Assembly: GCA_001661245.1 (NCBI GenBank)
Contig: KV454016.1
Span: 606,648 to 670,647, forward strand
DNA: 64,000 nt
Direction: 5' to 3'
DNA from: Pachysolen tannophilus NRRL Y-2460
Lineage: Eukaryota
In this document: piece by piece, positions 3,566-55,712 of the stretch
Numbering within the stretch: the first letter of the stretch is position 1
How the letters are laid out: every line of letters begins with the position of its first letter
Notes under the pieces: generated by a model
The model's input: the letters and a program-made list of their open reading frames with translations, nothing else
What the model was told of the DNA's origin: nothing
Databases searched by the model: none
Program-made: the position numbers and the translations under genes

Positions 3566-3647
3566 CGACAACGGCAGGACTCGAACCTGCGCGGGAAAAT
3601 CCCAAAAGATTTCTAATCTTTCGCCTTAACCGCTCGGCCACGTTGCC
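3566..3647 (-). tRNA. tRNA-Ser(AGA), intronless, long variable arm
   Basis: Reverse complement GGCAACGTGGCCGAGCGGTTAAGGCGAAAGATTAGAAATCTTTTGGGATTTTCCCGCGCAGGTTCGAGTCCTGCCGTTGTCG (82 nt), followed by a T-run Pol III terminator. Confidence 0.97.
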
Positions 3648-6088: not shown

Positions 6089-7420
6089 TTAGCCCAGCAA
6101 ACTAAATCTATGTAAATTATTTGACCAATCTTGAATTCCAATTTCCCCATTTAAATATTTATCTCTATTCACTTCTATATTTTTAGTAATTCCCGAACCT
6201 GACATTAAAAAAGTTGAACCATAAAGACTAGCACCCGACCATGGTCCCAAACTATGTACTAATTCAATTGGTATAGTTGTTAATTGTTGTAATTGTTTGG
6301 CAATATATGATTTAATACCTGGAATATGAGATAATCCACCAGTTATAATAATATTACCAAATAATTTTGTCCTTAAATCAATTGGTAAATTGATCAAAAT
6401 TTTATTTATAATTAAATCAATAATTGATTTTTCATTTGAATCCAAATTTGGCCAAAGATCTTGTGGTGGGAATAATAACTTTTTAACCAAATCACAACGT
6501 AATTTATTTGGAATTTTACAATTATCGGAAATTATAAAATCACCTTCAATATTTTCTTTATCATTTATATAGCAACATTTACTAATAAAATTTTCAATAA
6601 ATTCAAATAATTTATATTTATCATTAAAACTTGGTAGTTTTTCAAATCCAACAACTTGAATCAATTTTTCCAAAATCTCATAGTGCAAATATTTACCGCT
6701 TCTGTTTGTTGATTCAATATTATTATGAATTATTCTTAAATCATAAACTGGGACAATTGTTGTCAGTTCCCAACCAAGATCAATCACCAATGCATTTTGT
6801 ATACCAGCACCAATACAACACATAGTAGGCTCTGATACATATATCAATGACCTTGCATGTATATGGTTCAATAATGTATAACTTAATATATTTTTTAAAG
6901 GAATTGGTAAAAAAATATTTTCTATCAAGATAATTTTACACATTTTTGCATCAATCAATAATTCTGTTTGATAAATATCATGAAAAATTCTTTCTAATAA
7001 ATTTTCCAAAAATTTAGAATCAAAATTAGATGAGATATCATAATTCCATAACCATTGGGAGTTGATTAAATCTTTACAATAAATTGTTGATATTAATAAT
7101 TTTTCATTATTATTCTTTAATTTCGAAAATTCATCACCATGAGGATCAATTGAATGATCATTAGTAAGTATCAGTGAACCAGTTTGAGTTAATTCATTGA
7201 TTTCATCCGTAATACAGATTTCTCGATTCAAATGTTGATTCCATTTTAAATTATTTGTTTGTAAATTACATAATGGTGTAGCATCGCCTGCAAACCCCGC
7301 CTTAATAAACCTCGAACCTATTTGCAAAACCACAGGAAAATACTGATTGAGTTGTCTTTTCTGAAAATCCAGACTAAACTTCGGAACCGCCAGCTTTGAT
7401 TCTGAAGTCAACAAAGACAT
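6089..7420 (-). CDS. ARP10: Divergent actin-related protein, probably dynactin Arp10, 443 aa
   Basis: Actin-fold motifs VLQIGSRFIKAGFAGD, ALVIDLGWELTTIVPVYDLR, NIIITGGLSHIPG, WSGASL. Confidence 0.7.
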   Translation of the reverse strand: MSLLTSESKLAVPKFSLDFQKRQLNQYFPVVLQIGSRFIKAGFAGDATPLCNLQTNNLKWNQHLNREICITDEINELTQTGSLILTNDHSIDPHGDEFSKLKNNNEKLLISTIYCKDLINSQWLWNYDISSNFDSKFLENLLERIFHDIYQTELLIDAKMCKIILIENIFLPIPLKNILSYTLLNHIHARSLIYVSEPTMCCIGAGIQNALVIDLGWELTTIVPVYDLRIIHNNIESTNRSGKYLHYEILEKLIQVVGFEKLPSFNDKYKLFEFIENFISKCCYINDKENIEGDFIISDNCKIPNKLRCDLVKKLLFPPQDLWPNLDSNEKSIIDLIINKILINLPIDLRTKLFGNIIITGGLSHIPGIKSYIAKQLQQLTTIPIELVHSLGPWSGASLYGSTFLMSGSGITKNIEVNRDKYLNGEIGIQDWSNNLHRFSLLG

Positions 7421-10145
7421 CTAAATTTTTTTAAAAACAAAAACCAAAAAAAAAAAGAAAAAAAAATAAATGTAATATTATTTCTTTTATTTACTTTATT
7501 TATTTTTCCTCAAAATAAAAGTTGAGTAATAGTAATAGTAATAGTAGTAGTAGTAGTACCTCATTTACCACTTTTGTATTATTTATTTTTTATACAACAG
7601 CGGTTTCTTTCATGTTATATGTTTCTTTCCATATTATGTTTTCTTTATGTTACCTTTATTGATAACAGAGAATTAGTTGATGATGAGACAAGAGAAGCAC
7701 AACTCTGTAGTGTTCTAACGAACATCCATTGTTCCATTGATGCCAAACTCTGCTTGAGGAAGACTGTCTATATATTTTATTTTTTTTTAAAAAAAAGAAT
7801 TCTTCTCTTTTTTTGCTGAAATTCCCGGTTGCCCATTGGCGCTTAGCTTTGATGAAGATACAGCTACAGCTTACGTCTTTTCACATGTACCGTATAGAGT
7901 AGATCAGTTGCCGAATCAGGAAGCATCCATATTGATGTTGTATCTATCTGGTTTCATTATAGAACGCGGGACAAAACTTTAAAATTAATTTAAGTTGACT
8001 AGTAAAAATACGGTTGAATAAAAAAAATTAGGAAATCAACTTACAAAAAATCATTTTAACTCAACGGCGATAACGTATAATTAATAACTAAACCTCGGAA
8101 TAAAAGAGATCTACAAAACTACAAAAAAAAAAATTAAACTAATTCTGATGATATCTGGGACTTGGACTTTAAATTTTCAAAAATTGTTAAAACAAAAAGA
8201 AAAAAAAATTTAGCTTTTTTTTTTTTTTTTGCTTTGTTATGTTTTGTACATTTTTATTTTTTTGTTTTTTTTTTTTCTTACATGCTTTATTTGATGTATG
8301 GATGAGAGACAATTTGAAAGACATTACATGAAAAACTTAGTCCCCTCTGTGAGACCAAGAAAAAAAAACCCAAAAAAACAAGAAAAAAAGGCGATTACGA
8401 CTGCATATATTATTGTATTGTATTATATTATATTGCATCCAATAGTGTTATTCAGTAATTCTGTCATTTTAATCAGAGATAGTTTCCCAAGTAATTTTTT
8501 TTTTTTTTGTTTTTTGTTTTGTTTTTGTTTTTGTTTTCTTTTTTGTTGTATTGCTGTATTGCTGTATTGTTTGTGTATTTGCCTCTTTTTAACAATAAAA
8601 TAAGATGTAGAATTAAGTTAGTTTCATGTGGCGGTGGTGGTTGTTGCTGCGGAATGGTGCCTCATGATGAAAACAAAAAGATACAAGAATGTCTCATTTC
8701 GAATCTTACGTCTCATATTTAAATAGAGATATGCCCTTGGGTATGTTTGAAAAAAAAATTTAAAGTTTATTGTTTTTTTTTTTTATTTCTTTTCTTTATT
8801 TATGGTTGAACAATCAATCAATTAAAAGATTTATTTATTTATTTTTAATAATAATAAATTTAACTCAAGATTGTTGCACACCTTTATTTTTGTGTCTTTT
8901 TTTTTTAATAAAAAAAAAAATTTTTTGATGCGCCGATTAAGAAAACATATAGGGAATGCACAAGATATAATGCAAAATTAGGCAATCTAACGTCAAGTTT
9001 GTATCGACATGCATGATAACCAACATCCGGAAAACCACAACTTGACCAATGGTCAAATTGGTTTCTTTTTTCTTTTCTTTTTAAAATACAGTTTAAAGCT
9101 CATAATAATGATAATGCAAAAATTATTCTTTATATTGAATAGTAATACCTCCTGGTTATTTTTTGATCTTGTTCCCATTCATTTAGTTTATTGTGAAAAA
9201 ATTGCTGATCGTTTATCTAACATTGAATCCCACCTCTCACCCCCCTCCCTTTTCATTCTCTTATTTTTTTTTTTCGATTCGCAAAAAACTGCAGAATCTC
9301 TCAGAAATTGAATACAGTTTAATGCATAAACGTTAGAGCTAAATAATTTTCACGCATATTGTTCCTCTAACTAATTTAATAATTTTTCATATTATCAAAC
9401 TAAAAAAAAAAAAACAAAAAGTTCAAAAGTTTTAATCTCTGTATATACATATATATATAATGGAGTAGCCCAGGAAAAAAGTACTATGAAAAAAAATAAT
9501 ATATATACATATATATATATTATTTTGAAAAGAAAAAAAAATTAACAAACTTCTTACAAGAAAATCATTTGAGTATATCATCTGAATATCAATTTGAATT
9601 GAAAACTTAAAATGTTAATTTTTTCACTTCACCACTGAAACAATCTTCATATTGCTGTGTTTTCTTGAAAAATAAATCAAAAGAAAATTTATTTTATTTT
9701 AATTTTTTTTTTTCTTGGGTATTTGATTTTTGATTTTCCGCTATCACTATTATTAGTACCTGAAAGCAGCAGCACTCAACTAATTAGCCTAAACAGTTAC
9801 ATTAATATCCACTATACACCTCACTATTTACAAACTTTTATTTTTTGGCTTTTTTTATTTTTTTTTACTTTTTCTCGCTCATTATATCATTGTCTCATTC
9901 TTTGCAGCCGTTTTTAAATTTTTCGAGTTTCTCCCTGCAAGACAGATAAGATACATTATTACCAATTTTTTAAAAATCTTGATTTTATTAAAGATAAAGA
10001 ATTCTATATATTCATATATATGATTTGGTGTTAGAGCTGTATATTGATTGTTACTGATTTTTTATTTGAAAAAAAATACTATTCAAGAACGAAAAAAAAA
10101 AGCCAAAAATCGAGAAAGAAAAAAAAAAATTTTTGATTGTGCTGC

Positions 10146-10742
10146 ATGTCTACCACTATCAGAACAACAGAGATGTCTACAATCAATTGTAAACCTTTCA
10201 AAGAAGCTAGCTTATCAATTATTGCGGATGGCTCTACCAGTGCTGGTGAGGAATTACAGGAGACTGAAGAGTGTATTTCGTTGAGTAGTGACTCTTCAGA
10301 TGAGGAGAGTAGGGTGCTGGAAACCGTGGAAGAGATACAGGAACTGGAAAATTCTGATGATTCAGAGGAACCACAAGAAATTCATTCTCGATCAGAGCGG
10401 CCACCATTAAGCATACCTAAATCACATATGATAGCAGCATCTTCAAATCCAAGGAGAACTCTGTTGCTTTCCCCTTATATATTGCAAAATCAACTTGGAT
10501 CAAGATTTCCATATCACTCAATACATGGAATACACCAAAGACAAAATTTGAATTGTACTCCTTATTATTATCATGGACCAGCAAGATGTGGTATGAATTC
10601 ACCTTATTTACAACCTCCAAACAATTTTTTGTCTTCCTCTTTATCATCATCATCATCAACATCATCACAACAAAAAGATTCTCTGGATCTGGGTATTCAG
10701 CCAGTCTCATCTTTTTTCAAGAAAACTTGTTACAAGTGTTGA
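10146..10742 (+). CDS. 198-aa acidic/Ser/Pro-rich ORF ending in half a zinc knuckle (KKTCYKC*); likely the 5' part of a split GIS2/CNBP-like gene
   Basis: ATG at 10146; ends AAA ACT TGT TAC AAG TGT TGA. Confidence 0.65.
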   Translation: MSTTIRTTEMSTINCKPFKEASLSIIADGSTSAGEELQETEECISLSSDSSDEESRVLETVEEIQELENSDDSEEPQEIHSRSERPPLSIPKSHMIAASSNPRRTLLLSPYILQNQLGSRFPYHSIHGIHQRQNLNCTPYYYHGPARCGMNSPYLQPPNNFLSSSLSSSSSTSSQQKDSLDLGIQPVSSFFKKTCYKC

Positions 10743-11017
10743 ATCGAATAGAATAGAGTTATCGTAAACATCTGAAACTTGGATTAAGTATTTACAGTTG
10801 AAAGTTTATATCAGTAAATTTAAAAACCACTGCATTTTTTTTTTTCTTTTTTTTTCTTGGCTTTCATCTCACGGACTAGAATTTGTCTTTTTCTTTCTAG
10901 TATCAAAGAGTGGGAAGTGATATCTTTTTATTAAAGCCTCTCAAACTGTTATTGATAATAAGTATAGTGATTTAAAATTAAGAAAGCAATGATAGCTTTT
11001 GAAGTATTTTTCATAAA

Positions 11018-11834
11018 CTAGCCCCTTGGTGAACTTTGCTGTGCCCTGAAATGGCAATACTTGCTAATGTGACCTCTTTGTTGGCAAAAATGACATACAA
11101 CATCAGAAGCTTCAACAACATTCCAATCACAATTATCCATGAACGAAGTTAATCTTGACCGATTAACTCCCACAGCACAATAACTTTGATAATATACATA
11201 ACCTGGAGACAGAACACAATTCATTGGTAACTGATTGTGATAATATTTTTGAGCCAAGGCATCACCACTTAAGAACAACAAAGATTGTTGTTTTAAACTA
11301 GAAGAAGGATCGCTAGATCCTAGTTCAAGTTTCTGATGTGATGATAACGGCGTTCCGCTACTTGAAGGATATGGTGAGTTTGAAGATGGAGTTGTCATTG
11401 ATGATTCGGAGAGTGTGAAATACTGCTGTGATTGCTTTGTTGGACTCAATTGAAATTGTAAGTTGTAATATGGAGGCGGAGGTGGGTAATTATTAGGATG
11501 CAACTGTTGCTGAAACCGTTGTGGCAATTGCAGTTGCAGTTGCAGTTGCAGATGCAGATGCAGATGCAGCATCAGCAGGTGTTGTTGTTGTTGTTGCTGT
11601 TGATGATGTTGGTGTTGGTGATGCAGCGAATGTTGCGCATGTTGTGCATGTTGTTGCTGAGATTTTCTTGGGCACTGCGATTGGAGATGTCCAATCTCTC
11701 TGCATATATAACATTGTTTCAAAGTAGTTGACCTAGGGTGAGGACAATCAGCAGTCTCATGTCCAGGTTCTTTACAATTATAGCATAGTCGTTCAGTTGA
11801 TTGACAATTCTCAGCGTAATGACCAAGGTTTCCG
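11018..11834 (-). CDS. 3' part of a CCHC zinc-knuckle (GIS2/CNBP-like) protein with no ATG before its knuckles: half knuckle, two knuckles, Q/H/A-rich linker, C-terminal knuckle
   Basis: GNLGHYAENCQSTERLCYNCKEPGHETADCPHPRSTTLKQCYICREIGHLQSQC matches the Gis2 N-terminal knuckle array; in-frame TGA just upstream; ends CHFCQQRGHISKYC...*. Confidence 0.8.
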
Positions 11835-12246
11835 CTTCGTCAAATTTTTTTTGACCCACCCTTGTATGATTTACATTATACATTTTTCAATATGAAAAAA
11901 TTTTATATGTTTAGTCTTTTAATTGATATTTTTCCCCCTTTTTTGTTTTTAATAATATTTTTTTAAAAATATTTTTAGAATTCAATTCTTTTCTTTTTCC
12001 TTTCCATTCCTTCCCTTTCTTGTTTGTTGATTAGGAATTAATATAATAAATAAGCATCTTATATAATGATTGATCTGTTGATAATGTTATAGATACAACA
12101 TTCTGAATGTTGTATTCCAAAAATTTTTGTATTTTTTCTGCATGAAGCAAATTTGAAATATTCGCCCCTTTTTTTTTTTGGCACTTATAAATAGGTCCAA
12201 ATATTGGCTTCAAAATAACTTTTAATGATTTATACATTAAACAAGG

Positions 12247-13876
12247 ATGACTACAGGTGAGATTGAAGATGGCCTAACAGGCCCTGGAACTATTATTTCA
12301 GTTGATGAGTTACAAGATCATGGAATTAATGCTGGTGATATTCAAAAATTAAAAGCTGTGGGTATATGCTCAATTTCTGTAAGTTGATATCAATAATTTC
12401 TTTTATTTGCAAAATAATAAACAATGACAGAATTATCTAACAAAATAAATCTTTTTTTTTTCTAAAGACGGTGTTATCTACAACACGTAGAAATTTATTG
12501 AAAGTTAAAGGTTTGAGTGAAGTTAAAGTTGAAAAAATTAAAGAGGCAGCAGGTAAATTAGTTCAGGCAGGTTTCATTCCTGCAACAATACAAGCAGAAC
12601 TCAGAAGCAGAGTTTTTTCCTTATCTACTGGTTCAAAATCTCTTGATGCTATATTGGGTGGTGGAATCATGACAATGTCAATTACAGAGGTTTTTGGAGA
12701 GTTTAGATGTGGTAAAACTCAGTTAGCACATACTTTATGTGTTACTGCCCAATTATCAAGGGTAAGTCTCCCTTTTTTCCAAAAAATGATAAAAAGTAAC
12801 AAATACTGACTAGTAATTTAATTCAATTTAACTTTTAGGAAATGGGAGGTGGAGAAGGTAAAGTCGCATACATTGACACTGAAGGTACATTTCGTCCGGA
12901 AAGGTAAGTATATGTCGATAAAAATGAAAAAAAAAAAAATGAAAAAAAATTTTACTAACCCCTAATCTTAGAATTAAACAAATAGCCGAAAGGTATGAAG
13001 TTGACCCAGAAACATGTTTATCAAATATTTCATATGTCAGAGCTTTAAACAGTGAGCATCAATCAGAATTAGTTGAACAATTAGGCATCCATTTAGCAGA
13101 AGGTAGCTATAGATTGGTTGTATGTACAAGGTTTTGAAAAAAAAAAAAATAACAGGAGTAACTTAATACTAACTCAAAACTAGATCGTTGATTCAATTAT
13201 GGCAAATTTCAGAGTTGATGTAAGTTCACCTTTAAGTTTTAGATAGTTTAGGTGGAATAATAGAAACTAACTTTTTTCTTTTTCATTTTTTTCATTTTTT
13301 TTTTCAGTTTTCTGGACGTGGTGAATTAGGAGAAAGACAACAAAGGTATGTACTGATAGAAAAAGTTCTAATTAAGAGGAATAATACTAACAAAGATTAA
13401 ATTTTTTTTTTTTTTTTTTTTTTTTTTTCTCTTTCAAGACTCAATCAGCATCTATCAAAGTTAAACAGAATTGCCGAGGACTTTAACGTAGCAGTGTTTT
13501 TAACTAATCAAGTTCAATCAGATCCTGGAGCAAGTGCCCTTTTTGCCTCGGCTGACGGAAGGAAACCGTAAGTAATTATAATTGTACAACCATTTTCAAT
13601 TTTTGAATACTAACATTTTTGTGTTTTAAAATATAGGATTGGTGGTCATGTTTTAGCTCATGCTTCACAGACAAGAGTGTTGCTTCGGTAAGTTTTAATG
13701 GAACAATAAATAGTTTATGTTCAAGTACTAACAAAATCGTATTTAACATTATTTAACATAATAGTAAGGGAAGAGGAGAAGAAAGAGTCGCTAAATTACA
13801 GGATAGTCCCGACATGCCGGAAAAAGAGTGTGTCTATACTATTGCTGAAGGTGGTATTACTGATAGTTCAGGCTAA
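12247..13876 (+). CDS. DMC1: Meiotic recombinase Dmc1, 334 aa, 9 exons: 12247-12378, 12468-12761, 12839-12903, 12972-13119, 13184-13219, 13308-13345, 13439-13567, 13637-13687, 13765-13876
   Basis: Spliced frame gives [28 protein letters not shown] (Walker A), [62 protein letters not shown]; exons total 1005 nt. Confidence 0.96.
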
Positions 13877-25421: not shown

Positions 25422-26441
25422 ATGGCTAGTAATATTGTTGGGATTAAACATGACAGGGTCACTAATACCTCATCTACCGATTTTCCTGGTTATACAAGTA
25501 ATACAACTGAAGATTATTCATGGAGTTTAGCAAGGTTTAAAGAAAAATTTGATATCAAGATATCTTTCATAGCAGATAGAACTGCAAACTTTGATTTGAT
25601 TGGTATAGATACTTCGATAGCGAATGCTTTTAGAAGAATTATGATAGCAGAGGTTCCTTCAGTTGCAGCTGAAAACGTCTATATATTCAATAATACCTCT
25701 GTTATTCTGGACGAAGTATTGGCTCATAGAATTGGGTTAATTCCCTTAAAAGTTGATCCAGATTTACTTACATGGATAGATCCAGCTGCTGATGAGAAAG
25801 ATAGATTTACTGATGAAAACACTATTGTTTTAAGTTTAGATGTGGTATGCACAAAGAATCCACATCCTTTGAAAAATAATAAAGAACCTACAAATTTATT
25901 TAGAAATTCAAGTATATATGCCAGGGACTTGAAATTTGAACCACAAGGAAGACAGTTGGAAATTTTCAAAGATTCTCCAGTTGTTCCAGCTGATCCGGAT
26001 ATTTTATTAGCTAAATTAAGACCTGGACAGGAAATATCTTTAAGAGCACATTGTATATTAGGAGTTGGTGCGGATCATGCCAAATTTTCACCTGTTTCAA
26101 CAGCTTCGTATAGATTGTTACCAGTAATTGATATTTTGAAGCCAATAACCGGAGAAGACGGTGCCAAGTTTCAAAAATGTTTCCCATCTGGTGTTATCGA
26201 TATCAACTCTAGAGGAGAAGCTTACGTTAAAGATGCCAGAAAGGATACCGTTTCTAGAGAGGTTTTAAGACACAAAGAATTCGAAGGAAAAGTTAGTTTA
26301 GGAAGGAGAAGAGATTATTTCATCTTTAATGTGGAAAGTACTGGTGCAATGTCTCCAGAAGAGATATTTTTCAAAAGTGTTAGAGTATTGAAAAATAAGG
26401 CTGAATATTTGAGGAATTGTCCAATTGGAAATTTAAACTAA
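25422..26441 (+). CDS. RPC40: RNA polymerase I/III shared subunit AC40
   Basis: DTSIANAFRRIMIAEVP, DEVLAHRIGLIPL, ILLAKLRPGQEI, DHAKFSPVSTASYRLLP. Confidence 0.97.
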   Translation: MASNIVGIKHDRVTNTSSTDFPGYTSNTTEDYSWSLARFKEKFDIKISFIADRTANFDLIGIDTSIANAFRRIMIAEVPSVAAENVYIFNNTSVILDEVLAHRIGLIPLKVDPDLLTWIDPAADEKDRFTDENTIVLSLDVVCTKNPHPLKNNKEPTNLFRNSSIYARDLKFEPQGRQLEIFKDSPVVPADPDILLAKLRPGQEISLRAHCILGVGADHAKFSPVSTASYRLLPVIDILKPITGEDGAKFQKCFPSGVIDINSRGEAYVKDARKDTVSREVLRHKEFEGKVSLGRRRDYFIFNVESTGAMSPEEIFFKSVRVLKNKAEYLRNCPIGNLN

Positions 26442-38306: not shown

Positions 38307-41300
38307 ATGTCAACATCTTTGTTGGCGTATAGTCAACAAAGGTTGACATTAGGAGTGGTTCTGGTGGTTGGTTTGAAGTTTGGAGATGGGAAGTTGGGTT
38401 TTTCAAAATTGAAATCATTACGAGGTTGTTATCAGATGGGGAAAAGGTTTATGGCGTTTATGCCGCCGCCGCTGCCACAATTAGCAGCATCAGCTTCATT
38501 AGCACCTTCAGGTTCATTAGCGCTGCTACCGCCGTTGTTGAATAATGGTAATGATTACGATAATTTAAAAGTTGATGATGAAATTTTTCTCAAAAATTTA
38601 TTGTACAAAGCAGAATTCCGATCAACTTTAAATTATTACTCTAAATTTAAATATAATAGGATATTTAAGCATTTTCAAAAATCTCCTCAATTAATTCAAG
38701 AATTAACAGCGCTTAATGAAAAACTGTCTTGTTTTGAAGATAATGAAAATAAATTACCCGATATAGGTTCTCTTGTGGAGGCACAACTTAATTCAGGTGA
38801 AGTTATCTTTGGTATTGTTATTAAACCATCAATTGGTAAATTTAACGAATCTTTAAATTGTTTACAAGTTTTCACAATAGATGGGAAATTTATTAATATA
38901 AGACCTTGCGATGTTACTTTCCACATTTATAAATTTTATAATGTAAAATTTTTACAAAATTTTTTAAATTCAGAAATTGAAGATTTTAAATATTCTCATT
39001 TACAACAGGTTCAATATTCTTTAATTTTATTTATTGATTATTCATTAAGTGTTTTTGAAAAATTGAATTCAACATCAATTTTTGATTATGTTTTTGCAAA
39101 TATTTCCTCTGACAATATCATGAAAAGTTTAACTTTGCAAAATGCTTATAGATCTATTCCTAAAGAAGGTTTGAGTAATCGAAAGATTACACCTTTTGCC
39201 GTTTTATTTGCTTTACATTTAAAATTAACAAATGATCCAATTAATTATCAATTTTATAAATCATCATCCAGTTTTAACTTAACTTCAAATAATAATTCCA
39301 ATTTTACTCCCACATATTTTGTAAATTCAAAAAATTTGCAAGATAAATTATATGATGTAATATATAATCTTCACCAACAAGACTTTGACGAATTTAATGA
39401 TTATGTTAAGTTACTCTTACAAGAAATAGCGGTAAATGGTGTGCTAAATAGCAATTTACTCAAATCATTTTATTATACTAGTAATATTAATAAGTTGATT
39501 GTTTCTTTTCTAAAATATTACATAGTGTACCCTCATGAATTATTTGAAAAAACATTGGCAAAAGTCATTAAAAATAACCAAGATAGGTCACCAGCAGCTG
39601 TTTTCAAATTATTAGTCAAATTAAATATTTATAGAGATGATGAAATCAATGGATTCGATGATCCACTATTATCTACAGATAATTTTTTTGTGCATCCTAA
39701 AAATCAAACAACATTGGCAGTTTTAAACACAAATCAACTATCTGATACTCATAGTAAAGTTTTCAATAACTGGAAATTCGCCAAAGATGATGAAACTTAT
39801 AAGTCTAATGATGATAACAATAATAATAACAATAACAATGAAAGTATGTCAATGGAGTATCAAGATTTTTTTAAGCATTTAAGAAATCATAATGACTTAA
39901 CAATGCATAAAAAGGATATACAAGTTTTTGGAATACCACTTCGTGGAAACTTACTTGAATTGGGATTTAACAAACAAACTAGCGACCTTTGTTTCTCAAT
40001 TGAAAAAATTAATAGCAGGAACTGGATAGTAAATATTCATTTACCTGATGTAGGTAGCTTTATATCACCAAATTCTAATATTTTTAAACAAATTTTGGAA
40101 AGATTTATTGTTAAAGATTTCAAGTTGCCAAACGGATTGATGTCTTTCTTACCTAATGATATCATCAATGGACTAGTATTTAAAGAAATTGATCAACAGT
40201 TTGAAGATTATAATGAAGATGAAAAAGTGTTTAACTGTATTACGCTAAGTTTTCAATATAGACCTAGAGATGACGAGAAAAATTTTGAAAATCCTATTGT
40301 TACTTTAAAATTAGATAAAATTAACGATGTCAAGATCTTATTAAAAGAGGAGTTGGATTATGCTCTAGGAAATTCATCTTCATTTTTTGACACATATACG
40401 AACCCAAATATTCGAACATCATTAGATCTTACTCCCATAACAGATATTATTCAAGTTTTACAGTTGAAAAGGAATTTCAGAAAATCTTTTGGATCACTTA
40501 ATATAAATTTTGCTTCACAGTCCTTGAGTGTTAATAACAACCACATTAAAGATGATGATATTTTATTCGATGAATCAAAATTACAATTTAAGTCTTCATG
40601 TAATCTCAAACCATTTTCGACTGAACTGTTTTATGAGGAATTGTCTTTAATGATTGATGAGTTTTCTTCAATTTATTCTTCAAACAATCATATTAATGCA
40701 TATTTTCATACTCAAACTTTTAGGGAAGAAACAACAGATAAAGATGATGTAGTTATTGTTAACCCAATGAATTCGTTAACACCAAAATATACGGCCTCAA
40801 TTTTTGATCATTTTTTATTTGAAAGAACTTATTCAAATAATTTGACTCCGACTTCGTATTTTTGCTGTTTGGAATTTTTATCACAAGATGAGTTATTCAC
40901 TGATCGAGGTAACACTTCTAATGGCGGTGGTTATATGTTATATGGATTACACAATAATTTGATGAAATTTGGTATTCCACTCTCATCTTTAGAAAATTTA
41001 ATTAACCAGTGGCAAATTTTAAAGTTTCTTGAAAAACAGTTCTTCTTAGAGAATCCAGGATTTGATGAGTCGCATTTATTTTTAAACGGATATTTATTAA
41101 ATGAAGAAGATAAAGTCACTAGGGAAAGAAACCTTGATTTGAAATCTTTTCATAAAAAGTATATTTCTAAGAATGAGAAGGTTATAGATTTCATGACTCA
41201 AAACTCTAAACGATACTGGGTTTTAAAATGGCTTGAAAATTTTTACAAACCAGTAAATCGAAAGTTTTATGAACAAAATAATCTTGATAATACTGTTGAG

Positions 41301-41549
41301 ACAGAATCAGAGTTTTTCCCGATCTTATCATCACCAGAGGCCAAATCTGCTTTACCAGTTTTTTTCAAATGCGTAGTATTTCAGTCTAATGCTTATCCAA
41401 GGTTGGCAAGGGCCTATTGCATGGAGTTGGGAATTGAGGTGGAGATTCTTTTGTTTTCTGACACAAAAGTTGTTGTTGGAGACAGATTGGTTTGCACCAC
41501 TATAGTTTATCTAGATAGCATCTCTAAAAGATTGGTTTTGATGCAATAA
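38307..41549 (+). CDS. Divergent RNase II/RNB-family protein (Dss1/Cyt-4-like), probably catalytically inactive, 1080 aa
   Basis: DFFKHLR, FSIEK...VNIHLPDV (HIAD-like), CITLSF, ENLINQWQI, SKRYWVLKWL, C-terminal S1-like region. Confidence 0.65.
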   Translation: MSTSLLAYSQQRLTLGVVLVVGLKFGDGKLGFSKLKSLRGCYQMGKRFMAFMPPPLPQLAASASLAPSGSLALLPPLLNNGNDYDNLKVDDEIFLKNLLYKAEFRSTLNYYSKFKYNRIFKHFQKSPQLIQELTALNEKLSCFEDNENKLPDIGSLVEAQLNSGEVIFGIVIKPSIGKFNESLNCLQVFTIDGKFINIRPCDVTFHIYKFYNVKFLQNFLNSEIEDFKYSHLQQVQYSLILFIDYSLSVFEKLNSTSIFDYVFANISSDNIMKSLTLQNAYRSIPKEGLSNRKITPFAVLFALHLKLTNDPINYQFYKSSSSFNLTSNNNSNFTPTYFVNSKNLQDKLYDVIYNLHQQDFDEFNDYVKLLLQEIAVNGVLNSNLLKSFYYTSNINKLIVSFLKYYIVYPHELFEKTLAKVIKNNQDRSPAAVFKLLVKLNIYRDDEINGFDDPLLSTDNFFVHPKNQTTLAVLNTNQLSDTHSKVFNNWKFAKDDETYKSNDDNNNNNNNNESMSMEYQDFFKHLRNHNDLTMHKKDIQVFGIPLRGNLLELGFNKQTSDLCFSIEKINSRNWIVNIHLPDVGSFISPNSNIFKQILERFIVKDFKLPNGLMSFLPNDIINGLVFKEIDQQFEDYNEDEKVFNCITLSFQYRPRDDEKNFENPIVTLKLDKINDVKILLKEELDYALGNSSSFFDTYTNPNIRTSLDLTPITDIIQVLQLKRNFRKSFGSLNINFASQSLSVNNNHIKDDDILFDESKLQFKSSCNLKPFSTELFYEELSLMIDEFSSIYSSNNHINAYFHTQTFREETTDKDDVVIVNPMNSLTPKYTASIFDHFLFERTYSNNLTPTSYFCCLEFLSQDELFTDRGNTSNGGGYMLYGLHNNLMKFGIPLSSLENLINQWQILKFLEKQFFLENPGFDESHLFLNGYLLNEEDKVTRERNLDLKSFHKKYISKNEKVIDFMTQNSKRYWVLKWLENFYKPVNRKFYEQNNLDNTVETESEFFPILSSPEAKSALPVFFKCVVFQSNAYPRLARAYCMELGIEVEILLFSDTKVVVGDRLVCTTIVYLDSISKRLVLMQ

Positions 41550-43773: not shown

Positions 43774-46400
43774 TTATAAATTGAATAAATCAGGTAAAAA
43801 ATCTTTCCAAAGATCCACAGGATAATCGTAATTCATTAAAACAGGTGGCCCTCCAATGAAGTTTTGATTCATTTTAGAATGTAGCAAATTATTATTAGTG
43901 TTGTTGTTGTTGTTGTTGTTGTTGTTGTCGGCATTACTGGAAGTACTAGCATTCCCGTAAGCACCACTGATGTTGTGATCGCTTTCAATATTTTGATCAA
44001 TGCCACTGTTAGATTTTTGCTTATTATTACTAATATCTTTGCCATTATTATTGTTATTATCAGTAACCAGACTGTTATGTGTCCAATACGATGGCCTGTT
44101 ACTCTCCTGAGTAAACTGATTTATTTCAGCAACATTATTATTTCCATCTTTATTCAAGGAATTATGAATAGGATGAGCAAACTGATCACTTATCAAGTTA
44201 CTAGCAGCCCTTTGTGAATTGAATCTATTTATTACGCTAGCATAAGCTTCTTTCCTTGATGATGAGCCCTTATCATTATCAGCTTTAGCAGCATCCTGAG
44301 ATTCAATTTTGTCCAACTCTTTAAAAAAGTTTTGAAATTTATCTTCATCTCTACTGTCTCTCCAAACTTTCCTAATTTTTGAGATGACAAGATTAAACGA
44401 TTTTTCAGCTAGTTTCCAAGACTTTGAGCAGTTTTTCAATACTTTTAGGAAAAATTCCAATTGATTTTGTTCTTTCGGATTAACAGGAGGTGATTGATGA
44501 TTTTTGATCAATATACAACTTATACTTAAAATCACAGAATACACCATAAACAAGGAAGCCTTTCTCAAGCTGTGTACAGAATGGAATGCGCTAACAGCGG
44601 TAAATAGATCTCCAATGGATTCTTCACAAATCAAAGCTGGGACTATCTCTTTACAATCTTTTGTCGTAGCAATATCGGTGATTATAAATGGTCTATTGAG
44701 ACACAAGAGTATAATGTAATAATAATATTTTAAACTTGTAAAAGTTGGATTTTCACCTCTAGTTTTTAAATCGTTTTTAGTCCATTGTAACTCCTTTGGT
44801 AAATTTTCCCTCCATTTCATCAATTTAATATTGTAATAAGCTAACAGCTTTTCCCTTGACGCTCCATTCCATACATCCCTCGAATTTGAAAAGACGTCTG
44901 TCAATATTCCTTCAGCTATTTTACTTAAATCCGCTAACCATTTGGCAGATACAGCAATTGTTATATTTGGGCTCTCCAAAGTCTCTAGATACCGATAATC
45001 ATCGATATTAGATAAATCTGGTAACATACCCGAAGTTGCTACTGTTGTATCAGATAATTTCAAAGTAATTGGCCTTCCTAATACAAGACTGATAAAATGA
45101 TCACACAAGTAACACCCCCAATAAATTCTTGACCTAATTGCTATGTCTTGAGCTGAAATTGAGGTTCCATCGTTCAATAACCAATTTTTAGGGTCTAAAT
45201 GGAAACCCAAGTCATAACCCATCCTGAATGCTAGCCCCGACAATAGCCAACCAGAACTAGTATAACCATTACTAATATCATATACAGCTAGAAACAATAA
45301 AGCTTGGACTGATGTTATACAAGGATATTCAAGTTTTTCGCTTAATAACTTTTCTTTTGCAATGTGATAAAATTCATCTGCTTTCTTATAAACTTCCTCA
45401 TCATCAGATATTCTTGCACCAAGTGCTGCTATTGCAAATATCAAGTCATCTGAGCAATAAACACTGTTTAAAGTTGGATGGAAAAAATCTTTTAAAAAAC
45501 TTTCTCTGTAAATAAAACAATTCATATCTGGATATTGCCATTTGAAAAAATTGGAAAGACATTGCAAAATAAAGGGAGAATTTAATAAAGGCATATTGAA
45601 AGTTGGTACTAATTTATCTTTTCTTGTAGGATCGATTATATTATCATAGACACTAGTTGGTCCATACACTGATATACCTCCATTAATATTAGATTCTTCA
45701 ATGGCAACAGGTGAAAATTTTTTAGAGGCATGTGAGCTAGCAGTTAGATAATTATAACCATCATTTACTCCATTTAGTTTATTATTGTTTGGTAATTTGT
45801 CCCCAGATTCAGTTCTATCGTTCGGATACTCTGACTCAGTTTTAATGGTTAATGATGATGATGATTCACTATGATTCCAAGAATTGTCTCCCCTCTGTTT
45901 ATGGGAAATGTCTCCCCCTGCAAAACTTTTATCTCCTCTTAACTCATGAATCATGTCTTCTAAAGACTTGATTTGAGATTCAAGCGTTTTCACGTATGAA
46001 CTTTTATATCTTTTTGACCTTCCATCTTTTTGGGCTCTTTCACACACGGTTGAATTCCTGCGACAGTTACTACACGGAACATTAGAATCACATTTAATCT
46101 GGATATTCAAAGTTAGTATTTCATCTACATTCCTTCATAAACAATATTCGATTAATTTATTCTTTACGCACTTTTTTCGAACGACAATAAGTACAACTGT
46201 TGTAAAAATAATTTAAAGTTAGTAAGATAAACAATATTAATTTATAAAAAATAGCAATAATCAACAACAACAACAACAACATCTTTTTCTCTTTTTTTTT
46301 TTTTTCTTGATAAGACTTACGAAGTTGTGCAATGAGAAGTTTTCTTCCTTGTCTGCTTCTTAATAATTTGATTTGTATTACCTTCCTCTGTGCTCGTCAT
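43774..46400 (-). CDS. Zn(II)2Cys6 transcription factor with Fungal_trans domain (Cha4/Tea1-like), 809 aa; exons 46321-46400, 46172-46196, 43774-46098
   Basis: Splicing introns 46197-46320 and 46099-46171 completes CTYCRSKKIKCDSNVPCSNCRRNSTVC; GWLLSGLAFRMGYDLGFH, RSRIYWGCYLCDHFISLVLGRP. Confidence 0.88.
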
Positions 46401-54417: not shown

Positions 54418-55712
54418 GCAAAACAAAGAGAAAAATACCAATAACTTTCACTAATGTCCCTATTGCATAGATGATACATAAATTGTTTTTTTAAATGTAA
54501 TTATTATTTTTAAAATAGAAAAAAGAAAAAAGAAAAGAAAAGAAAAGAAAAAAGACTCAATTAATCAAAAGTTATATTTATATAATTTTCCTTTTGGAAA
54601 GTGATATTTTGTGGTGAAAGGTATAAATATAAGAATATTTCTTTTTTTAAAAATACATTTCTTTGTCTTTTGTTTTTAATTGTGTAAGTTTAGATGCAAT
54701 TCTAATACTTGACAAATTTAAGCGCCCATACACTTTATAAGAGTAAAAGAGTTAAAAAGTTTTATTTTTATTTTAAATAAANNNNNNNNNNNNNNNNNNN
54801 NNNNNNNNNNNNNNNNNNNNNNNNNNNNNNNNNNNNNNNNNNNNNNNNNNNNNNNNNNNNNNNNNNNNNNNNNNNNNNNNNNNNNNNNNNNNNNNNNNNN
54901 NNNNNNNNNNNNNNNNNNNNNNNNNNNNNNNNNNNNNNNNNNNNNNNNNNNNNNNNNNNNNNNNNNNNNNNNNNNNNNNNNNNNNNNNNNNNNNNNNNNN
55001 NNNNNNNNNNNNNNNNNNNNNNNNNNNNNNNNNNNNNNNNNNNNNNNNNNNNNNNNNNNNNNNNNNNNNNNNNNNNNNNNNNNNNNNNNNNNNNNNNNNN
55101 NNNNNNNNNNNNNNNNNNNNNNNNNNNNNNNNNNNNNNNNNNNNNNNNNNNNNNNNNNNNNNNNNNNNNNNNNNNNNNNNNNNNNNNNNNNNNNNNNNNN
55201 NNNNNNNNNNNNNNNNNNNNNNNNNNNNNNNNNNNNNNNNNNNNNNNNNNNNNNNNNNNNNNNNNNNNNNNNNNNNNNNNNNNNNNNNNNNNNNNNNNNN
55301 NNNNNNNNNNNNNNNNNNNNNNNNNNNNNNNNNNNNNNNNNNNNNNNNNGCAAAACAAAGAGAAAAATACCAATAACTTTCACTAATGTCCCTATTGCAT
55401 AGATGATACATAAATTGTTTTTTAAATGTAATTATTATTTTTAAAATAGAAAAAAGAAAAAAGAAAAGAAAAGAAAAGAAAAAAGACTCAATTAATCAAA
55501 AGTTATATTTATATAATTTTCCTTTTGGAAAGTGATATTTTGTGGTGAAAGGTATAAATATAAGAATATTTCTTTTTTTAAAAATACATTTCTTTGTCTT
55601 TTGTTTTTAATTGTGTAAGTTTAGATGCAATTCTAATACTTGACAAATTTAAGCGCCCATACACTTTATAAGAGTAAAAGAGTTAAAAAGTTTTATTTTT
55701 ATTTTAAATAAA
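54418..55712. repeat. Direct duplication of about 364 bp (54418-54781 and 55350-55712) flanking an N gap (54782-55349); probable unmerged contig overlap
   Basis: The only difference I found is one T-run length (7 vs 6); both copies abut the gap exactly. Confidence 0.9.

Follow-up and report, generated by a model that had tools for sequence, protein, structure and literature searches.

How is the codon CTG read in the 64-kb stretch of DNA analysed here (the window)? The question arises from a short minus-strand tract at 11528-11581 that is rich in CTG codons and that an earlier note on this DNA had taken as a sign that CTG is translated as alanine. Our analysis indicates that the window very probably belongs to a budding yeast of the CUG-Ala clade (Alaninales, NCBI table 26), in which CTG means alanine. 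The CUG-Ala code is already known here and has already been applied in the public annotation of this sequence, and our results add nothing to the work of 2016-2018 that established it. What is new is an inverted 1.1-kb segment that makes one zinc-knuckle gene look like two.

The CTG-rich repeat

On the minus strand, the letters at 11581-11528 are exactly the CTG, CAT and CAA codons that the earlier note had described, and no ORF of at least 80 aa was found on the plus strand over the tract. Read with table 26, positions 11528-11581 give H-A-A-M-(A-H)3-(A-Q)4; the tract region as a whole translates as HLLMLHLHLHLQLQLQLQ with table 1 and as HAAMAHAHAHAQAQAQAQ with table 26. In frame on the 3' side of the tract follow TTG CCA CAA, and the final repeat unit is TTG, a true leucine codon one step from CTG. 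Upstream in the same frame, at 11653-11621, we found the units CAA CAT GCA, CAA CAT GCG and CAA CAT TCG and then CTG CAT. The peptide HAQHAQH is spelled by CAT GCA CAA CAT GCG CAA CAT at 11650-11630 (minus strand), after which come TCG CTG CAT. The description of this upstream repeat as written in GCN codons holds for GCA and GCG, but the third unit carries TCG (Ser).

Tandem Repeats Finder gave 11524-11569 a period of 6 (7.7 copies, 95% matches) and 11626-11653 a period of 9 (3.1 copies, reading QHA QHA QHS). Accordingly, the tract is a DNA repeat of the slippage type, with a hexanucleotide unit that keeps the frame. Its ten CTG codons have been copied from one another and do not count as ten separate observations, and the tract alone is weak evidence for any genetic code. 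A mixture of codons was also seen in the presequence of MRPL9, the homologue of mitochondrial L3 (36042-36893, minus strand), where codons 23-29 read Q-[CTG]-Q-L-Q-[CTG]-P-L and Q-Leu units stand beside Q-CTG units. The features of the window that bear on the code, together with the residues that face CTG codons in pairwise alignments, are collected in Table 1.

Table 1. Positions of the features discussed and residues facing CTG codons in homologous proteins
Feature	Positions	Strand	Remarks
CTG-rich tract CAC CTG CTG ATG (CTG CAT)3 (CTG CAA)4	11528..11581	-	9 CTG codons
Q-Q-Q-H-A-Q-H-A-Q-H-S-[CTG]-H	11621..11660	-	9-nt repeat (CAA CAT GCN) and one more CTG
RAX2 homologue, 8 CTG codons	21043..25002	+	column of site 179 60% Ala; public copy P0001 Ala at 8/8
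ATG2 homologue, 7 CTG codons	46728..52958	-	all in variable columns; public copy P0092 Ala at 7/7; used for tree
TFC3 homologue, 8 CTG codons	31771..35712	-	public copy P0362 Ala at 8/8
Actin-related protein, 443-codon ORF, 5 CTG codons	6089..7420	-	public model P0212 Ala at 2/2
ARX1 homologue, 3 CTG codons	1421..3229	-	E 7.6e-162 to S. cerevisiae Arx1
5' part of CCHC zinc-knuckle gene, 198 codons, 5 CTG codons	10146..10739	+	ends ...KKTCYKC
3' part of the same zinc-knuckle gene, 271 codons and stop	11018..11833	-	stop at 11018-11020
1,094-bp segment	10740..11833		orientation opposite in contigs of runs X1, X3, X4
G6PD-17			faces A
G6PD-300			faces R
RPC40-96			faces Q
TFC3-368			faces K (S. 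cerevisiae tau138)
TFC3-469			faces A (S. cerevisiae tau138)
TFC3-667			faces T (S. cerevisiae tau138)
TFC3-1046			faces A (S. cerevisiae tau138)
UTP22-595			faces E
FGGY-192			faces S
FGGY-331			faces A
GDH2-611			faces G
ARX1-156			faces L (S. cerevisiae Arx1)
ARX1-180			faces V (S. cerevisiae Arx1)
ARX1-458			faces A (S. cerevisiae Arx1)

Residues aligned to CTG codons

CTG is rare in the window. Among the 14,199 codons of the 23 ORFs of at least 150 aa there are 67 CTG codons (0.47%), compared with 740 TTA and 408 TTG, and the contexts in which they stand are mostly hydrophilic. One of these 23 ORFs is a run of N: a spurious 212-aa ORF (54773-55411, minus strand) lies over a scaffold gap of 568 N at 54782-55349, and the window therefore comes from a scaffolded assembly.

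We examined 41 of the 67 CTG codons, and 27 of these were usable, 13 as profile sites and 14 as pairwise sites. The profile sites remained from 20 CTG codons in the RAX2 homologue, the ATG2 homologue and the actin-related protein, and nearly all of them lie in variable columns. Used for the profiles were 87 of the 91 RAX2 homologues found, 119 of the best 120 of 213 ATG2 homologues, and 149 homologues of the actin-related protein among the matches listed (at least 150). For all statistics, the homologues were anchored on the query by BLASTP with CTG masked as X; columns from MAFFT and from the BLASTP anchoring disagree at the weakly aligned CTG sites RAX2-286, 656 and 940. A codon-by-column likelihood decoder built on RAX2 and ATG2 returned the standard meaning for 58 of the 61 sense codons and missed ATG, CGT and CTG. 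The pairwise set was taken from the best solved-structure homologues of seven further proteins, in which 14 of 21 CTG codons could be aligned. We took the facing residues from HMMER alignments by eye, and the stretches around TFC3-469, FGGY-192, FGGY-331 and GDH2-611 are weakly aligned. The search for TFC3 homologues returned one of 7,997 scored candidates, which was the window's own protein, and its eight CTG sites were comparable only pairwise with S. cerevisiae. For the ORF at 38307-41549, which gave no Pfam family and no solved relative, the five CTG sites were left unused.

These alignments speak clearly against leucine. The mean leucine frequency was 0.089 in the columns of 13 CTG sites compared with 0.438 in those of 351 other leucine codons (Mann-Whitney p 1.4e-7), and none of the 101 columns of RAX2 and ATG2 with at least 60% leucine holds a CTG, whereas CTA, CTT or CTC stand in 12 of them. 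Over the combined 27 sites, leucine was 17.1 nats behind alanine. The observed Ala-minus-Leu value of +4.49 compares with -4.33 +/- 1.06 for entropy-matched sets of true leucine codons, eight standard deviations apart. Leucine as the meaning of CTG in the window is thus excluded. If CTG were an ordinary leucine codon, the tract would be an (HL)n(QL)n peptide that arose by slippage. Single sites agree with this reading: the unit that ends the tract repeat is TTG-Leu, a true leucine codon stands as Q-L-Q between two CTG units in MRPL9, ARX1-156 is opposite leucine in S. cerevisiae, and leucine is the commonest aligned residue at ATG2-1263 (0.30) and RAX2-29 (9/29). Against the column frequencies, the empty conserved leucine columns, the likelihood difference and the entropy-matched sets, we give it next to no probability.

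Between alanine and serine the separation is smaller. When the 13 profile sites were taken alone, serine was ranked first with alanine 1.56 nats behind, and serine won 1419 of 2000 bootstrap draws. In the control, 13 codons drawn at random from the true codons of Ala, of Leu or of Ser were called rightly in more than 99% of draws. For entropy-matched sets of true alanine codons the Ala-minus-Ser value was 0.93 +/- 1.25, with 2.5% at or below the observed -1.56, and for true serine codons it was -5.03 +/- 0.87, with 0.1% reaching the observed value. The columns under CTG thus resemble those of no ordinary codon. Among the conserved columns of RAX2 and ATG2 (at least 60%), CTG occurs in none of the 42 serine columns and in one of the 25 alanine columns (RAX2-179, 60% Ala). 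Compared with background, alanine was enriched 1.82-fold in the CTG columns, the highest value of all residues, and serine 1.05-fold. Facing the 14 pairwise CTG sites were five alanines, one leucine, one serine and seven other residues; the probability of at least five alanines among 14 is 0.0015 if CTG is serine, 0.0001 if it is leucine and 0.56 if it is alanine. When the 27 sites were combined, alanine fitted best, with serine at -3.7 nats and leucine at -17.1 nats, and the bootstrap gave alanine in 73% and serine in 10% of draws. Taken together, the alignments argue with moderate strength for alanine over serine. A window of 64 kb was thus enough for a firm rejection of leucine and a moderate preference for alanine.

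Some CTG codons face glutamine. Codon 96 of RPC40 (25422-26441, plus strand) is CTG where the structures of S. cerevisiae, S. pombe and human have Gln, and codon 219 of the actin-related protein (6089-7420, minus strand) is CTG where 7 of the 12 nearest relatives have Gln. As CAG is one step from CTG, these Gln-facing sites suggest how new CTG codons for alanine arise. The scatter of residues facing CTG fits a codon that was recaptured after loss.

Two other readings have to be weighed against alanine. Were CTG serine, as in the CUG-Ser1 (Candida, table 12) or CUG-Ser2 codes, the tract would read (S-H)n(S-Q)n. The lead of 1.56 nats at the 13 profile sites, the 1419 of 2000 bootstrap draws and the mostly hydrophilic CTG contexts fit such a code, but the 42 conserved serine columns hold no CTG, serine is not enriched in CTG columns, the pairwise sites show 1 of 14 serine against 5 of 14 alanine (P 0.0015 under serine), and true serine codons reach the observed Ala-minus-Ser value in only 0.1% of entropy-matched draws. 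Moreover, both gene trees described below exclude the organism from the serine clades with support of at least 98, and the public records use alanine. We therefore consider a serine code very improbable. Alternatively, CTG could be decoded ambiguously, as alanine and another residue, or inefficiently, comparable to the stochastic Ser/Leu decoding in Ascoidea asiatica. Three observations would agree with this: no single residue fits the CTG columns as closely as is usual for ordinary codons, CTG stays ambiguous where 13 sites of true Ala, Leu or Ser are called rightly in more than 99% of draws, and the score observed for CTG falls into the 2.5% tail of true alanine codons. However, a like pattern is expected of a codon recaptured after loss, since Q, L, V, P, R and M codons at sites that tolerate change are the source of such new CTG codons; RPC40-96, opposite Gln in three Rpc40 homologues, and codon 219 of the actin-related protein, Gln in 7 of 12 nearest relatives, are of this kind. 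In addition, the proteomic data that Muhlhausen et al. give for the type species show 97.2% alanine (PMC4937558). Ambiguous or inefficient decoding is accordingly very unlikely as well. Likewise very improbable is that decoding in this lineage is not purely alanine, either because CTG has a second, minor meaning or because its meaning has not fully settled since its capture; the fit of CTG to alanine, worse than that of 97.5% of variability-matched sets of true alanine codons, would follow from it. Alanine remains the reading that we prefer.

Lineage, public records and decoding

The position of the organism was examined in two single-gene trees with SH-aLRT as the only support measure, of 18 rows for ATG2 (LG+G4) and 15 rows for RAX2. 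In the ATG2 tree the query groups with one relative, to which it is 48% identical, with support of 99, and this clade is sister (98) to Kuraishia, Komagataella, Candida boidinii, Ogataea, Brettanomyces and Pichia. The query lies outside the Candida/Scheffersomyces group (support 100) and outside Saccharomycopsis. The RAX2 tree gave the same picture with supports of 100, 99 and 98, and Ascoidea and the Debaryomyces group branch elsewhere. In the nearest relative, conserved alanine columns hold Ala at 7 of 9 and 16 of 16 positions and no Leu; Leu in such columns would have marked the relative as a CUG-Ala species translated with the standard code. On these trees the organism is sister to Pichiales and outside Serinales and Ascoideales, where the CUG-Ala clade sits. 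Because CUG has been taken from leucine and the lineage is sister to Pichiales, the lineage is identified as the CUG-Ala clade. Krassowski et al. 2018 describe the alanine clade as Pachysolen, Nakazawaea and Peterozyma, which in their account separated deep inside Pichiaceae from the Leu2 clade with Citeromyces, Kuraishia, Komagataella, Ogataea and Pichia (PMC5951914). Groenewald et al. 2023 treat the alanine clade as the order Alaninales, diagnosed by CUG as alanine; the diagnosis also names an order-specific protein family, OG0016373 (PMC11182611).

The public protein records agree with this reading. Between the public copies and a table-1 reading, differences occur at CTG only and always from L to A. 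The table-26 readings of six of eight ORFs are identical to public sequences, which adds 27 more CTG codons, and all 52 CTG codons checked in public copies are alanine, with none read otherwise. For the actin-related protein, the public model P0212 comprises 385 residues, which correspond to residues 22-406 of the ORF at 6089-7420; its start and end differ, and three of the five CTG codons lie outside it. The plain ORF of ARX1 is absent from the public collection under tables 26, 1 and 12, and the table-26 translation of the ORF at 43774-45954 is absent as well; the public models of these two genes therefore presumably differ from the plain ORFs. No leucine or serine versions are on record, and the 90%-identity clusters have one member each. 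These records show that the depositors had already used table 26, which is a choice of table and carries no weight as an independent measurement. Apart from this, the ARX1 homologue has an Asn-rich insertion around residues 198-220 that is absent from S. cerevisiae.

How the codon is decoded was taken from the literature. A tRNA-Ser(AGA) at 3566-3647 (minus strand; ARAGORN, Rfam 58.3 bits) is the only tRNA gene of the window, and neither Rfam nor ARAGORN returned a second one in the 64 kb. Muhlhausen et al. 2016 describe the tRNA(CAG) of Pachysolen as a tRNA-Ala with a mutated anticodon, which carries A73 and G3:U70 and lacks a long variable arm (PMC4937558). The same paper reports that CUG avoids conserved Leu and Ser positions in Pachysolen, that there are 16,824 CUG positions in 5,288 predicted proteins, and that LC-MS/MS in P. 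tannophilus found alanine at 97.2% of 907 fully supported CUG positions (PMC4937558). Following this literature on the clade, CUG would be read by a tRNA(CAG) descended from tRNA-Ala, and alanyl-tRNA synthetase would charge this tRNA through the acceptor-stem G3:U70 and A73, whatever the anticodon. Every CTG in the window's genes would then yield alanine, and 11528-11581 would be translated as the alanine-containing peptide given above. For this window, both the tRNA mechanism and the proteomic proof are inferred from these publications.

The features of the window can be compared with known reassignments. With the CUG-Ala code of Pachysolen tannophilus (table 26, Pachysolenaceae) it shares the avoidance of conserved Leu and Ser columns, the best fit to Ala, the position as sister to Pichiales and Ala at CTG in the public records; the rarity of CTG here (0.47%) is of the same order as the 16,824 CUG in 5,288 proteins counted in the cited study, and we found no feature that differs. 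The CUG-Ser1 code (Candida, Debaryomyces, table 12, Serinales) likewise has CTG off leucine, rare and at variable hydrophilic positions, but differs in that the residue in the window is Ala and not Ser and that the organism lies outside that clade. Ascoidea asiatica, for which stochastic Ser/Leu decoding of CUG has been described (PMC6041473), is also a case of CUG reassignment in budding yeasts, whereas the window gave no sign of two meanings and the Ascoidea and Saccharomycopsis homologues branch elsewhere. The claim that CTG means alanine is thus supported by the CTG alignments of the window, among them the tally of 0 of 101 conserved Leu and 0 of 42 conserved Ser columns, by the public copies and by the two gene trees. 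That Pachysolen, Nakazawaea and Peterozyma read CUG as alanine, which the earlier note had stated, agrees with the accounts in PMC5951914, PMC4937558 and PMC11182611. Table 26 is the proper choice for translating the window; the standard code or table 11 gives a wrong residue wherever CTG occurs, which affects 67 codons of the long ORFs, including 16 of the zinc-knuckle gene. The code was recognisable in bare sequence from a single repeat.

The zinc-knuckle gene and the segment 10740-11833

The tract lies in a gene that the window shows in two parts. The minus-strand frame from 11833 to 11018 is open throughout and is a genuine coding frame, with zf-CCHC knuckles that match Pfam PF00098 (E 6.3e-13). 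Its first ATG stands at 11572, a position inside the tract, and it opens with the half knuckle GNLGHYAENC directly after a TGA. On the plus strand, the ORF at 10146-10742 stops after ...KKTCYKC, the other (first) half of a zinc knuckle. In the public record only 11018-11572 is annotated of the 3' part, as a protein of 184 aa that starts with MAHAHAHAQ... within the tract, and the 5' part is a separate protein of 198 aa. We looked by eye for a 5' exon and intron upstream of 11833 on the minus strand as a source of the missing start codon, and none of the candidate splices agreed with the reading frame.

Position 10739 is connected with 11833, on opposite strands, in contigs of the public runs X1, X3 and X4, and a contig of 3,394 nt from X1 also contains the second joint, 10740|11834. 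At both joints, 10739|11833 and 10740|11834, there are zero shared letters. Because the joints link opposite strands, the 1,094-bp segment 10740-11833 is inverted in the window relative to the contigs of these runs. The three runs come from one study with at most two samples and may be the very data behind the window's assembly, and the place lies outside the coverage of X2. Over 9800-12400, the window and the run contigs differ by no substitutions and by three 1-nt homopolymer indels.

When the segment was turned back, both parts formed a single frame of 469 codons with no internal stop and with 16 CTG codons. This frame holds four C-x2-C-x4-H-x4-C motifs, of which three are complete in the present arrangement of the window; un-inverting makes the first motif, CYKC|GNLGHYAENC, whole across the joint. 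The inversion therefore accounts for the missing start codon of the 11018-11833 frame as well as for the annotation of one gene as two proteins of 198 and 184 aa. It could be an assembly error, or it could be a real strain difference or polymorphism. For the public record this means a correction of the annotation to one zinc-knuckle gene, now listed as two proteins. The gene resembles CCHC zinc-knuckle proteins (PF00098) in its four C-x2-C-x4-H-x4-C motifs and differs from them by a long Q/H/A low-complexity linker and by an acidic, Ser-rich N-terminal half. The tract, as an in-frame hexanucleotide slippage repeat, would then belong to the linker, rich in Q and H, of a CCHC zinc-finger protein with four knuckles.

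Two minor observations concern the surroundings of this gene. The single-base differences in homopolymer length between the window and the contigs of X1, X3 and X4 lie at 9857, 10091 and 10119, upstream of the zinc-knuckle gene. Moreover, a gene start was seen on the plus strand at about 12244-12390, followed by GTAAGT, which resembles an intron; the gene, which we tentatively take to be RAD51/DMC1-like, runs divergently from the region of the zinc-knuckle gene.
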